Of a stretch of 21,804 nucleotides of DNA, positions 5,049 to 13,267 are shown one piece after another (position 1 is the stretch's first letter; every line of letters begins with the position of its first letter). The notes under the pieces were generated by a model. The model saw nothing but the letters and a program-made list of their open reading frames with translations. It was not told the DNA's origin and made no database searches. A program made the translations under genes and the position numbers. This stretch comes from Minisyncoccota bacterium (GTDB taxonomy: Bacteria; Patescibacteriota; Minisyncoccia; Phycocordibacterales; JBAYGS01), in assembly GCA_041666545.1 (NCBI GenBank), contig JBAYGS010000001.1, forward strand, positions 1 through 21,804, given 5' to 3'.

Positions 5049-5124
5049 TGGGGAGTGGTGTAACCGGTAACACGCTTGCCTTTGAAGCAAGAGACTCTAG
5101 GTTCGAAACCTAGCTCCCCAGCCA
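5049..5124 (+). tRNA. tRNA-Gln (anticodon UUG) with encoded CCA
   Basis: The sequence folds manually into a cloverleaf: acceptor TGGGGAG/CTCCCCA, D-stem GTGT/ACAC, anticodon stem CTTGC/GCAAG with loop CTTTGAA (anticodon TTG), T-arm CTAGG-TTCGAAA-CCTAG, discriminator G, then CCA. Confidence 0.8.
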
Positions 5125-5220
5125 GTTTGAGATAGGTTCGGACTCCAAGGAGCATCGTTCGACTCCTATGTCAGAGACGGTATATTTTGATTGGGTCTTA
5201 AGTTAGTGTGTAATGAAATC

Positions 5221-6438
5221 ATGAGCAAGAATCGACGAAAAAAGAAACGATACGTTCCCTATAAGCCGAAGCAGATGACTTCGATGGGTGTGTCATACAT
5301 GCCGAAACGCGTCAATGTTCTGAAACTTAACTCCTTACCACCATTGGTAGGCTTTGCTACAACCAATACTCCGGCAGGAAAAGAAGAATTAGTTCCTATA
5401 CTTGTTCGCGCTTATCTAACATCAGACGAGCGCGAATTCCATTTATATATGGAGCAAGTAAGCAACATCATTATCGAGAGGGCGAAGAAAGCAGGGATAA
5501 TCCTTTCCATTGATTCATTTGTCGAGTTTGTGCTTGTTATACATAAAGACGGCACAGGCGAACTTCATTTGGACGGGGCCGGCCGCGCAATCGAGATACT
5601 TACAAAGCGTACTGTCCAAGCCGGTGAAGCGGTTTACGGAGGAGATATTGGCGATATTCGTCGAATGAAGTATCACGCTTTGACCCCTGATCCCTCGGAT
5701 AAGATCGTCGCTTGTTTCAAGATTGGGTGGAAGTTTGGAATGTTCTTTGACCTTAGTGGTGAGCTGGATACGGATCGAATGGAGCGCGATTTGGCTACGC
5801 TTTACAAGCGTCTGCGCTACCAAGCGATGTATGAGGCACTTGCCGATGAAGCGACGGTCGAACGTATGACCAAAGCAGGTTGGTTCCCGTTTATCGAAGT
5901 CATTGGTGGTGACTTCGACCCACTAATAAAGGCATACAAAGCGGAGTTTGATATCGAGGCTAAGGAGAAACAACTTGTAGCCAAGTTCACTTCTGAACGC
6001 ATAGATAAGATTGCGGAGCGTTGGTGGCGAAACCCAGCGCTTGCTAAACACAAGACCGTGCTACAGGCTGGATTGGATGCATTCAAGGGTAACGACCCCG
6101 TTTCCTCTATAAAGAACATAATGACCGAAATCGAAGGTGTACTTGCGGATGTGCATTTGGCAGAGAAGGGATCGACGGCAAAGACTAAAGCATTGCTTAA
6201 ACATGCCGTAGAAAAGGGAGTGAAAAAAGTCGATGGCGAGGCATCGCTGTTCTTCCCGTCGAATTTCCTTGAATATCTTTTGAAAGTTGCGTACCCCGAT
6301 TTCGACCCTAACGCACCAGAAGTGGCTGGGGCTTCACGCCACACCGTCGGTCATGGGTATGCGGCCGGTGAGACATACACACAAGCACGTGCGCTCCAGG
6401 TGATACTCACGCTCGATCAAATCGTCTTCTATTTATAG
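5221..6438 (+). CDS. Hypothetical protein (about 405 aa) with a basic N-terminus (KNRRKKKRY) and a C-terminal SRHTVGHGY segment matching the HEPN Rx4-6H motif
   Basis: The ORF opens at a TTG at 5191; the first ATG is at 5221. It is the first gene after the tRNA and has no recognisable family. The C-terminal Rx4H motif is in the usual position for HEPN/Abi-type RNases; this assignment is inference. Confidence 0.5.
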   Translation: MSKNRRKKKRYVPYKPKQMTSMGVSYMPKRVNVLKLNSLPPLVGFATTNTPAGKEELVPILVRAYLTSDEREFHLYMEQVSNIIIERAKKAGIILSIDSFVEFVLVIHKDGTGELHLDGAGRAIEILTKRTVQAGEAVYGGDIGDIRRMKYHALTPDPSDKIVACFKIGWKFGMFFDLSGELDTDRMERDLATLYKRLRYQAMYEALADEATVERMTKAGWFPFIEVIGGDFDPLIKAYKAEFDIEAKEKQLVAKFTSERIDKIAERWWRNPALAKHKTVLQAGLDAFKGNDPVSSIKNIMTEIEGVLADVHLAEKGSTAKTKALLKHAVEKGVKKVDGEASLFFPSNFLEYLLKVAYPDFDPNAPEVAGASRHTVGHGYAAGETYTQARALQVILTLDQIVFYL

Positions 6439-6462
6439 GTTACCTCATTTCCGAGGAGAATT

Positions 6463-11400: not shown

Positions 11401-13236
11401 CTAAATTATGATGAGACTGCGCATTTTAATTTGGGTTCCAACGAAAACACACTGGCTTTCTCGGAAATAATTACTACGCCGATTGGAAGAATTAAAGAAA
11501 CGATTGATACCTATGCCCACACCATCAAAGAAGTGCTGAACGAATACCGTGCTGAGCTAATGGCATTTGAGATCGTGTTGGGAAAGGGTGAACTTCCTAC
11601 AGAAGAACTTCAAAAAATGACAGAAGCTTTGGAGAAAGCACGAAACGAGGGAAATCCTAAAAAAGTGGCCGGCATTGAAAAGGGGATAGAAAACCTGAAA
11701 GCAAAATTCTCGCAAGAGCGAAAAGGTGTTCTGTGGGAAAAATTGTTGTCTGATGTGGCCTCGTTCCAGCGCCTTAAAGATGATGTGTATAAGGCGCAGG
11801 AAATTTTCGTGGCGACCGAAAAAGAACTGGAAAATGTCGTTATGGAGAAGATGCCATCTGGGAAGAGGATACAAGAGATTAAACGAAAGATGGCAAGCGC
11901 AAAAGAAGATTTGCGCGCAAAATTTGTAGTTATGGAGCGTCGAATTGAGGAATTTCGAGGCAATCTTAAAACCGTTATTGCACCGGCCTTGGGGAGCGAT
12001 CGTGCCTCGGCTCTTATTCAGGAGATAAATACGAAACTTGCCGAGCAATTCAACCACTTTGATACTGACAGAAGTATGCTCAAGAATCTTTTCTCCGAGC
12101 AATCCGATAAAAGGAGGGAGGAGGTTGAAAGTCGTCCGATGAGTATCTTTGTCTGGACAAGGGACCCTGATGTGGATTTGTACCAAGGTAACTATTCTCC
12201 TTGTTGCATTTGCATAGACAGTGAGTACCACGGGGCTGAGTCTCCTATATCGGACTATAACATCGACTTGGGCATTCAAATCGTGAATGTGTGGGACGAG
12301 GTAAGAGATGAGCCGGTGACGGCCGCGTGGTGTTGGCTCGGTGAGGATGAAAAAGGCGAACCGGCTTTGGTGGTAGACAATATTGAGGCCAATACTTTTT
12401 ACAGTGCAAATTTTTCTGGGCAGTTTACAAATGAGCTCTTTAAATATATTAAAAATTACGCCAAAGAAATTGGGGTCAAAAAGGCTATTCTTGGCAAGGC
12501 AAACAATGATTTGCCTACTGCTGGAGAGTTGTCAAAACTTCCCGAAGATGCAGGGAGATACAAAAAAATCGGCGGGGCTAGCAGGTCGGACGGATACTTT
12601 CTTGAGGCGGAAGATACCAGCGTTAAAACAATTTGGGAAAAGGGAGTTAAGTTGGTAAACAGGAGGTCTGAAGCTGACAATCCAAAAGATGCTGAGCGCG
12701 TTATTTTCGGTGAAGTTTCCACGCTCCCCCTTACTGAAAATGATTTTCGCTTGATGCGCGATCTTGAGGGTAAGGTATATGCAGATGATTCCGAATTGAT
12801 ACAGGGGTTGGAACTTGTTCGAGACATTAAAGACGGTAATGGGTTAGAATATTCCTTGGCAACCTGGGGTGTGCAGGAAGGAGGGACCAAGCAAGAGATG
12901 ATTGCATATGCTGTTGCGGTAGAGGGTGAAACTGATGAGGGCGACAAATCAGTTTATCTCGAAGATATTGCGGTCGCCCCGGAGGCTCGAAGGCGCGGTA
13001 TTGGCCAGAAATTAATTCAAGAATTGCTGGGAAAACTTAAGGTGAAAGCGGCGAGAGATAGCAAACCGGTACTTTTTGACATGCATCTTCGATCAAACTC
13101 ATTGGCCCTGTTAGACGGACAACAGGCGCAACTTGGGGGAATGGGGGTTGTTCTGTTGGAGGATGTGCTTGTTCCTGACTTCTACGATGAAGGGGAGGAT
13201 GCGGTGTATAGGGTGTATGAAGTGGCGGCGAATTAA
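8425..13236 (+). CDS. Giant multidomain protein (about 1600 aa) with an N-terminal array of about 20 degenerate ~40-aa repeats (SPEVQxAxK...G.I..A.EI...F.LP.EF), a coiled-coil segment, a Cys-rich central domain (YSPCCICIDSEYHG) and a C-terminal GNAT N-acetyltransferase domain
   Basis: One uninterrupted 4.8-kb ORF. Protein-level tandem repeats are visible between about aa 110 and 830. The C-terminus has the GNAT motif A pattern VYLEDIAVAPEARRRGIGQKLIQELL. The start codon is uncertain (ATG at 8425 or 8461; neither has a strong RBS). Confidence 0.65.
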   Translation: MEFVSVFCYYLHMSEKFSKQGEVNKVVLRPEDMVGKFDVDEKRKKDTIRERATDRLIKGLLRGYISYTEENNLEGVDHVRSEHDKGDDYDQDDDLDNNDNVDWEWERKQILSRIPSEVRVLPEVQKAAKEGMLLCLESGNLAEAVDIKDVFSLPTEFIHSVAALNAIKDELIRWDDTDRIVGLVNKFFPNLSPEQALSPELESAFKHVIAQLLSEGYTEKAIEIKSKLSLGAEVISSPEVQNALKKKFSDDLLVGDVREAERLQKHFLLTTEFMHSPEVQAAVKYRVADILSRRDYDFVKNATEVGIKFSLLKENLQEAAKVGMVANLSRGNIHNVIEIRDKFELPKGVSTSPEMQQAAKEGMMSCLDIDNIDALTKRAISIKEEFSVPDEFLASSEVQSAVARIVTYCISGVHYMLDRAVEIRNIFLLSEDLTQEAVKVGMIRQIVRNNLPVAEKMREAFSIPEGIMHTPEVQLEVKGLLIRYLETGSAEQALKLADDPSFSSETLVSPEIQECARKALVRHILGGRIGAYNNGYFRTCELIRDKFALPIDFNTSPEIEEAVKKLTISLLTGAYTTDHSTEVINQFPVVSARVIPSPEVQNAVNARIIDRFAHADTAPIKEYQERFGVSPEAMRRCAREGLLSLLSNGKSSNIRDYDNLVKNFSFTQEELSSQEMQQAVKNGMSKYIEQGNIRLAVEIAQKFFLPAEELNRIAEGELIKFLNIGNRSISIGIKDSCSISKEYISSVPVQQAAKNGVMRQLSKENIEDAVQIKKQFSLTDEIYTQASIEAVASILSGGSFEATMRIKGRLQLSDDAMSQVGKRAFLKCLLDEKKDMAGKIKEKLRVTVNSEDIFGFFPEMRKILSDLAAVSPEFSAQAERTPDLLLSLLEFRNDLGKIIRIARENPFLLDAVAANPRFGSRLLIKYPQFDTIAKSSIKTQFEIKKKIMAEHPDVDPQSVEFRTLMQDSLVGYRLNKQVLESIDAKGINSERWLNYDETAHFNLGSNENTLAFSEIITTPIGRIKETIDTYAHTIKEVLNEYRAELMAFEIVLGKGELPTEELQKMTEALEKARNEGNPKKVAGIEKGIENLKAKFSQERKGVLWEKLLSDVASFQRLKDDVYKAQEIFVATEKELENVVMEKMPSGKRIQEIKRKMASAKEDLRAKFVVMERRIEEFRGNLKTVIAPALGSDRASALIQEINTKLAEQFNHFDTDRSMLKNLFSEQSDKRREEVESRPMSIFVWTRDPDVDLYQGNYSPCCICIDSEYHGAESPISDYNIDLGIQIVNVWDEVRDEPVTAAWCWLGEDEKGEPALVVDNIEANTFYSANFSGQFTNELFKYIKNYAKEIGVKKAILGKANNDLPTAGELSKLPEDAGRYKKIGGASRSDGYFLEAEDTSVKTIWEKGVKLVNRRSEADNPKDAERVIFGEVSTLPLTENDFRLMRDLEGKVYADDSELIQGLELVRDIKDGNGLEYSLATWGVQEGGTKQEMIAYAVAVEGETDEGDKSVYLEDIAVAPEARRRGIGQKLIQELLGKLKVKAARDSKPVLFDMHLRSNSLALLDGQQAQLGGMGVVLLEDVLVPDFYDEGEDAVYRVYEVAAN

Positions 13237-13240
13237 CCTG

Positions 13241-13267
13241 AATCTACAAGGTCCGGCCTTGTAATTA
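13241..13267 (+). repeat. 27-bp element AATCTACAAGGTCCGGCCTTGTAATTA (copy 2)
   Basis: Identical to 8381-8407. It lies 4 nt after the stop of the giant gene. Confidence 0.85.

Follow-up and report, generated by a model that had tools for sequence, protein, structure and literature searches.

A lower-GC patch beside tRNA-Gln in a Candidatus Paceibacterota genome is probably a mosaic of independently inherited genes, several with defence affinities

The closest described counterparts of the locus considered here are tRNA-linked genomic and defence islands, the stand-alone HEPN proteins of abortive infection (Abi) and the HEPN-MNT toxins, the DarT component of DarTG, and the GmrSD-type enzymes, which are type IV restriction endonucleases (PMC4619093). 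In this work we compare with these systems a block of five plus-strand genes that follows a tRNA-Gln gene in a 21,804-nt stretch (positions 1 to 21,804 of the 341-kb contig JBAYGS010000001.1; hereafter the window) of a Candidatus Paceibacterota metagenome-assembled genome (MAG), a member of the Candidate Phyla Radiation (CPR). The five open reading frames (ORFs) after tRNA-Gln are named g1 to g5 in order, g1 being WCT25_00030, and labels such as L001, L003 and L008 denote loci of relatives that were fetched for comparison. The patch shares with tRNA-linked islands a start at a tRNA 3' end, a lower guanine-plus-cytosine (GC) content, variable content and defence-like genes. Unlike them, it yielded no integrase in the scanned ORFs, lacks a flanking att repeat derived from the tRNA 3' end, measures only about 8-10 kb and is composed of genes of differing age and origin. 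On our best reading, this is a variable, lower-GC, defence-flavoured patch beside tRNA-Gln without the hallmarks of a classical island, and we consider it, with a probability of roughly two in three, to be a mosaic accessory patch in which five independently inherited genes have gathered 3' of dnaX-tRNA-Gln, and not one system.

The general layout given in the original prediction was borne out, with the ORF list, ARAGORN and Rfam (tRNA model, 68.7 bits) placing five close-set genes 3' of a plus-strand tRNA-Gln (UUG; gene anticodon ttg) at 5049-5124, which forms the left anchor of the variable region and is itself preceded by dnaX (3905-4969). The statement that these genes belong to no recognisable family likewise holds for g1 to g4, for which nothing significant was found in Pfam, NCBIfam, PHROGs or PADLOC, while g5 has a match to GNAT only. 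What is not supported is the proposal of a single co-inherited conflict system in which a nuclease acts together with small partner proteins and a giant effector. Co-occurrence was examined by tblastn at 86 g1 loci (not counting the same-strain locus L008), 38 g2 loci and three full-length g5 loci, and also in at least eight g4 contexts. No homologues of g2 to g5 were found beside g1 at any of the 86 other g1 loci, none of g1, g3, g4 or g5 beside the 38 g2 homologues, and none of g1 to g4 beside the three full-length g5 homologues (L009-L011); no two of the five genes co-occur elsewhere. Because each gene has its own distribution, the reading of the block as a novel five-gene conflict system, with a HEPN nuclease (g1), partners (g2 to g4) and a giant effector (g5) inherited as one operon, fails, and we regard it as very improbable. 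That reading could draw on the shared direction and close spacing of the genes (gaps of 24, 69, 34 and 56 nt for g1-g2, g2-g3, g3-g4 and g4-g5, respectively), on the lack of a strong or convincing intrinsic terminator between the five genes, and on nuclease or toxin affinities in three of the five. The scans for promoters and terminators remained at shuffle level and were uninformative. The entire set is also 100% conserved in a second sample, L008, but this adds no weight since L008 is the same strain, with 100% nucleotide identity over 10.3 kb.

Evidence for a variable, tRNA-adjacent region comes from the relatives. The gene order dnaX-tRNA-Gln-g1 is common to three lineages, represented by the window, L001 and L004/L020, with tRNA-Gln preceding the g1 homologue in each, while the genes past g1 are entirely different in L001 and L004/L020 and include none of g2 to g5. 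The last 10 nt of the tRNA together with a 32-nt leader that accompanies g1 (5115-5156, plus strand) are identical to L001 9941-9982 at 40 of 42 nt, and a similar leader stands before g1 in L021 and L005. L001 further carries a second, partial tRNA 3' end with leader directly before its g1 homologue, 190 nt past the intact tRNA-Gln. The full order across L001 9687-9985 is an intact tRNA-Gln, a terminator hairpin, the tRNA 3' end repeated in inverted orientation, a direct partial copy of this end with the 32-nt leader, and the g1 homologue; Rfam detects the intact tRNA alone in this stretch, which, judged from its sequence, looks like the footprint of repeated recombination at tRNA-Gln. In the window itself, two T-arm-like motifs, TAGGTTCGGACTCC and CGTTCGACTCC, were seen by eye in the leader at 5125-5180; they are similar to the tRNA's own GGTTCGAAACC and could be degenerate leftovers of earlier copies of the tRNA 3' end. 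The idea that g1 homologues are generally adjacent to a tRNA was also considered and rejected, a tRNA lying within about 1.5 kb at only 4 of 60 loci.

Base composition points in the same direction as gene content, at a modest scale. The GC content is 0.445 in the block and 0.456 in the following stretch (13268-15800), compared with flanking values of 0.489 and 0.503. For individual genes, GC ranges from 0.39 to 0.475 in g1 to g5 versus 0.47 to 0.53 in ten ORFs of the flanks (Mann-Whitney p=0.0007), and GC at third codon positions from 0.40 to 0.49 versus 0.46 to 0.65 (Mann-Whitney p=0.004). The lowering is real but small, and the by-eye impression that it extends to about 15.8 kb agrees with the measured GC. 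A distinct tetranucleotide signature was not seen, the block not being singled out by tetranucleotide distance within the window.

These observations bear on a further alternative, in which the stretch from about 5.1 to 15.8 kb is a decayed classical genomic island, inserted by an integrase at the tRNA-Gln 3' end. Consistent with such an origin, the region starts directly at the tRNA 3' end, its GC is lowered up to about 15.8 kb, its content is missing from relatives, the direct and inverted duplicates of the tRNA-Gln 3' end before g1 in L001 are a sign of recombination, and the g1 homologue of L003 adjoins a serine recombinase. However, Pfam returned no integrase, transposase or recombinase among the nine ORFs scanned (5191-15765; ORFs beyond were not scanned), which upholds the absence already remarked upon in the original prediction, and the partial downstream repeat of the tRNA 3' end that it had envisaged was not found, as no second copy exists on the plus strand of the 21.8-kb window with 25-nt and 15-nt probes at up to 3 mismatches. 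Phyletic patterns moreover differ from gene to gene, g5 looks vertically inherited, and the tetranucleotide signature is not distinct. A classical integrated island is thus not supported, and we consider its decayed form quite unlikely. An accessory, variable region beside the tRNA is supported, given the different genes past g1 in relatives, the lower GC, the lack of housekeeping genes, and the defence or toxin affinities of g1, g2 and g4.

Several observations weigh against the mosaic interpretation as we state it. The gaps of 24-69 nt, with no convincing terminator, leave room for a physical partnership of g1 with g2 or of g3 with g4. The only close relative of the organism is the same-strain L008, such that neither the boundaries of the patch nor any recent gain of g2 to g5 can be dated. 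The GC shift amounts to just 4-6 points against a baseline consisting of the 21.8-kb window only. Finally, many neighbours of g1 in other genomes are ordinary genes, such as AcrB, ExoVII and LptF.

The first gene, g1 (5221-6438, plus strand; 405 aa), encodes a solo HEPN-domain protein, as judged from an alignment of homologues, an AlphaFold2 (AF2) model and genomic contexts. Its 116 homologues are spread widely, and a scan of one genome per species placed the gene in 76 species of CPR, many Alpha-, Beta- and Gammaproteobacteria, Poribacteria, Chloroflexi and Oligoflexia. In the protein, aa 33-177 form an N-terminal domain rich in beta structure, and the C-terminal domain is helical and carries the invariant residues E305, R373 and H378. 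In an alignment of 85 homologues, the invariant positions comprise GWFPF, E305/G306 and R373x4H378 (R373-H-T-V-G-H378), and the Rx4H motif noticed near the end of the protein (SRHTVGHG) is therefore confirmed as a family feature. The AF2 model (mean predicted local distance difference test score, pLDDT, 91.7) shows the C-terminus as an all-helical bundle with the all-alpha, up-down arrangement of the HEPN fold, and its closest structural matches are HEPN toxins, HEPN proteins of the AF0298/TTHA0636 type, Csm6 and AbiV, while the N-terminal domain has no strong structural match. The initial guess of a HEPN protein thus gains support from both the invariant motif and the predicted fold. As in the stand-alone HEPN Abi proteins (AbiV, AbiJ, AbiU2, AbiD/F-type) and HEPN-MNT toxins, g1 combines a helical C-terminus with an Rx4H motif and a Glu upstream of it, both invariant, and like the stand-alone Abi proteins it occurs in defence islands as a lone gene with no constant partner. 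It differs from them in that none of the 85 members matches a HEPN or Abi profile of Pfam or PADLOC, in the beta-rich N-terminal domain, and, relative to HEPN-MNT pairs, in having no recognisable MNT partner, as the adjacent g2 gives no nucleotidyltransferase match in Pfam or among PDB sequences and g1 homologues elsewhere have no conserved neighbour. Searches with g1 and with the 85-member alignment also gave no match to a curated HEPN family in NCBIfam or among PDB sequences.

In Proteobacteria and other phyla, g1 is found in defence islands with no fixed partner. For example, the homologue in L003 (67% identity) lies beside the serine recombinase mentioned above, among ThsB_TIR, caspase, DUF3644, an E2/ThiF pair and MmeI-type restriction-modification genes; a Pseudomonas homologue lies between AbiJ, Kiwa and Hachiman; and Poribacteria copies adjoin type III restriction-modification genes. 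HEPN_Swt1, DUF5677, resolvases and M78/HTH genes were seen directly beside other copies, the commonest neighbour family occurring in at most 8 of 69 loci, and one split copy is phage-encoded. Homologues at 79% identity stand behind dnaJ with no tRNA nearby. Between the window and L001 or L004/L020, protein identity is 83-87% for g1 versus 50-51% for the neighbouring dnaX, and identity at third positions of conserved codons is 0.50-0.52 for g1 versus 0.18-0.22, a saturated value, for dnaX. Because the synonymous sites of g1 are far more alike than those of dnaX, this comparison indicates that g1 was exchanged among CPR genomes far later than those genomes split, and together the sequence evidence portrays g1 as a mobile stand-alone HEPN-domain gene.

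On the strength of these features, g1 is a candidate for an RNase that acts in abortive infection as a stand-alone HEPN protein, with both its RNase activity and its anti-phage role being predictions from motif, model and context. In the mechanism that we propose, the C-terminal HEPN domain would act as a metal-independent RNase using E305, R373 and H378, probably as a dimer, and the novel beta-rich N-terminal domain would hold the RNase inactive until an infection cue is sensed. Once activated, g1 would cleave RNA of the cell or of the virus, in the manner of abortive infection.

The second gene, g2 (6463-7185, plus strand; 240 aa, or 235 aa from the NCBI start at 6478), belongs to a highly conserved family that usually stands behind a different kind of nuclease gene. 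Homologues were identified at 38 metagenome loci at 63-81% identity, with one more at 39%, while the 90%-identity cluster of g2 itself holds gene calls of the same strain and one 54-aa fragment, and nothing more; no match was found in viral contigs. A gene for GmrSD_N (DUF262) plus HNH immediately precedes the g2 homologue at 19 of 32 loci, at a spacing of 15-36 nt. An EcoRI-type adenine methyltransferase is present at nine g2 loci, and RhuM or T5orf172-RAMA genes at others. The g2 homologues can therefore be placed directly downstream of GmrSD-type (DUF262 + HNH/DUF1524) modules (PMC4619093), often with a methyltransferase, RhuM or T5orf172. The window differs from these modules, in that neither a GmrSD_N nor an HNH gene was detected among the nine ORFs scanned and g2 carries no known domain. 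Pfam and PDB sequence searches with g2, including profile searches, returned no match, and no nucleotidyltransferase or antitoxin family was recovered. Invariant positions of the family (235-aa numbering) are E42, P74-D75-F76, E94-L95, K103 and NHExSEEW. Two motif readings of this alignment, as a nucleotidyltransferase (G..DxD..E) and as a PD-(D/E)xK nuclease (E42..PD75..E94xT..K103), were entertained and set aside, the Pfam and PDB profile searches being empty for both. We found no description in the literature of g2 as a component of GmrSD systems. Its recurrent position suggests for g2 the role of a portable accessory to restriction-type modules, and with its usual partner absent in the window, g2 would be either orphaned or now serving g1, which ends 24 nt upstream.

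The second of these possibilities amounts to a two-gene module of g1 and g2, in which g2 would be a portable partner (a regulator, an antidote or a second nuclease) that docks onto varied nuclease effectors. The pairing is based on locus L096, where a g2 homologue (80% identity) stands behind a 191-aa ORF (2798-3373) that lacks a Pfam match and has an Rx4H motif of its own, LRDTLEH. The 24-nt gap in the window and the position of g2 homologues 15-36 nt behind a nuclease gene at 19 of 32 loci fit such an arrangement, and HEPN toxins are commonly paired with an adjacent partner such as MNT. A g2 homologue is missing, however, at every other g1 locus examined, and the family also occurs behind non-nuclease genes, such as a histidine phosphatase (L103) and an uncharacterised 174-aa ORF (L129). 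Since, in addition, g2 matches no nucleotidyltransferase or antitoxin family and the HEPN status of the L096 ORF comes from its motif alone, we think a dedicated g1-g2 module unlikely.

Of the two small genes that follow, g3 (7255-7809, plus strand; 184 aa) is a putative orphan membrane protein. The transmembrane helix that had been reported for one of the small proteins is its N-terminal hydrophobic helix, read from the sequence. No match to g3 was found in the four family libraries named above or in phages, plasmids and viral contigs; its 90%-identity cluster has a single member, and it does not occur in the other 137 fetched loci, same-strain L008 excepted.

By comparison, g4 (7844-8368, plus strand; 174 aa) represents a large uncurated family, with 860 cluster representatives at E<=1e-3 in an exhaustive HMMER search, mostly single-domain proteins of about 175 aa. 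Its AF2 model (pLDDT 93.7) has the ADP-ribosyltransferase fold and is DarT-like. In contrast to DarT of DarTG, g4 does not match the DarT family of Pfam (DUF4433) or any PDB chain at the sequence level: neither g4 nor 100 family members match in Pfam, PADLOC gives no match, and the family profile has none among PDB sequences. A second difference is that no macrodomain (DarG) gene is adjacent, either in the neighbours g3 and g5 or in eight other g4 contexts, and a third is a set of invariant residues (H6, Y38, R41, W56 and P67) that includes no invariant Glu. The family alignment found no match in viral contigs. Homologues occur as solo genes of plasmids, metagenome contigs and a Stenotrophomonas phage, in unrelated contexts that include Bacillus/Cytobacillus and Thioclava replicons and CPR-like contigs with small enzymes nearby, while two relatives are fused to S-adenosylmethionine (SAM) methyltransferases, fusions that suggest a non-toxic enzymatic role. 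In L018, the closest homologue of g4 (58% identity) is followed 5 nt later by a 105-aa gene with an MGMT DNA-binding domain (PF01035; the pair spans 95-945), and the pairing of an ADP-ribosyltransferase-fold gene with a domain of the DNA-repair type may point to nucleic acid as a substrate. As a solo-gene family without a DarG-type antidote, found in small-enzyme and MGMT contexts and in methyltransferase fusions, g4 is probably a DarT-like ADP-ribosyltransferase-fold enzyme, as predicted from the model, and not a free toxin.

The last gene, g5 (8425-13236, plus strand; 1603 aa, or 1591 aa if it starts at 8461), corresponds to its first description as a giant repeat/GNAT protein. The N-terminal part (about aa 120-830) is made up of roughly 18 helical repeats of about 38 aa, spaced at 39-47 aa or multiples thereof, and is followed by a coiled middle. 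The C-terminal 770 aa or so are highly conserved, with invariant columns mostly at aa 800-1390, and end in a GNAT domain (aa 1480-1539). There, the acetyl-CoA-binding motif region (Q/RxxGxG/A) matches PF00583 at 30.8 bits (cutoff 20.7) and PF13508 at 28.2 (cutoff 27), about half of the model being covered. Twelve homologues were found, all in Parcubacteria/CPR MAGs where named, five of them full-length at 49-56% identity, and none in JGI metagenome contigs, and we regard the protein as specific to Parcubacteria. The full-length homologues in L009-L011 lie in three unrelated contexts, some amid housekeeping genes. Since its divergence is about that of dnaX (50%), g5 looks vertically inherited.

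A perfect 27-nt direct repeat, AATCTACAAGGTCCGGCCTTGTAATTA, containing a small hairpin (ACAAGG/CCTTGT), exactly brackets g5. The left copy (8381-8407, plus strand) begins 12 nt past the g4 stop and the right copy (13241-13267, plus strand) 4 nt past the g5 stop. The window contains only these two copies, where 0.08 would be expected for the hairpin core, and apart from the same-strain L008 the other 137 loci contain no copy. Two origins are conceivable for the repeat, namely a terminator that was used again or a scar from an insertion of g5, which may have entered between the two copies. An integron cassette array, considered on account of the co-directional and unrelated genes, was set aside on inspection, as no integrase was found among the ORFs scanned, the repeat flanks g5 alone, and the repeat, read by eye, has no attC core.

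The properties of g4 and g5 also bear on a simpler explanation, namely that the block holds ordinary, lineage-specific CPR genes with no conflict role, whose lower GC would reflect poor expression or fast evolution. CPR genomes are rich in unannotated genes, the homologues of g5 stand among housekeeping genes, relatives of g4 lie near small metabolic enzymes or are fused to SAM methyltransferases, and the GC shift is small. Such an explanation does not accommodate the patchy occurrence of g1 across phyla, its repeated defence-island contexts and the synonymous-site evidence for its transfer, nor the link of g2 to GmrSD_N+HNH and methyltransferase genes, and we judge it decidedly unlikely for the block as a whole. 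A mosaic of independently inherited genes remains the reading that we prefer.

Downstream of the block, per-gene GC shows the lower-GC stretch continuing over 13373-15765, where Pfam matches identify an M23 peptidase, a VOC/glyoxalase gene and DUF1761, accompanied by a 167-aa ORF on the minus strand. The minus-strand putative ORF (14203-14706) has a GC content of 0.55 inside the lower-GC stretch and no family match, although by eye it resembles GlcG/haem-degrading-like proteins. A perfect 38-nt palindrome, TACCCGTTCCACTTTAGTT/AACTAAAGTGGAACGGGTA, is located at 14064-14101, with an 80-90% similar copy 2.1 kb downstream at 16210-16250, the two copies enclosing this high-GC ORF, the VOC and DUF1761 genes, and roughly 600 nt without any gene (15770-16390). 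In that gene-free part (searched as 15760-16400), Rfam gave nothing credible.

Taken together, these comparisons allow a broader scenario that we put forward tentatively, as possible rather than probable. In this scenario, g1 would be a new and widespread single-gene family of anti-phage HEPN RNases, gated by a previously unseen beta-rich sensor domain and traded between CPR, Proteobacteria, Poribacteria and Chloroflexi; the 3' flank of tRNA-Gln would be a CPR recombination hot spot that collects such genes; and g2 would be a portable partner of nuclease effectors, GmrSD_N+HNH elsewhere and HEPN here.

At the level of the window, the analysis removes a false lead, as there is no new multi-gene conflict system in it, and leaves three gene families outside the curated libraries (g1, g2 and g4), each of which comes with testable predictions. 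The foremost lead is g1, a defence-island-associated family of predicted HEPN proteins, which the Pseudomonas homologue between Kiwa and Hachiman makes easy to test. Furthermore, g2 emerges as a conserved companion of GmrSD_N+HNH restriction-like genes, and g4 as an 860-cluster family with a predicted DarT-like ADP-ribosyltransferase fold and no antidote partner. Beyond these families, a gene of defence type that was apparently exchanged horizontally, and recently, between CPR genomes beside a tRNA provides a small but concrete case, which is of value because the mobile elements and immunity of the CPR are poorly known.

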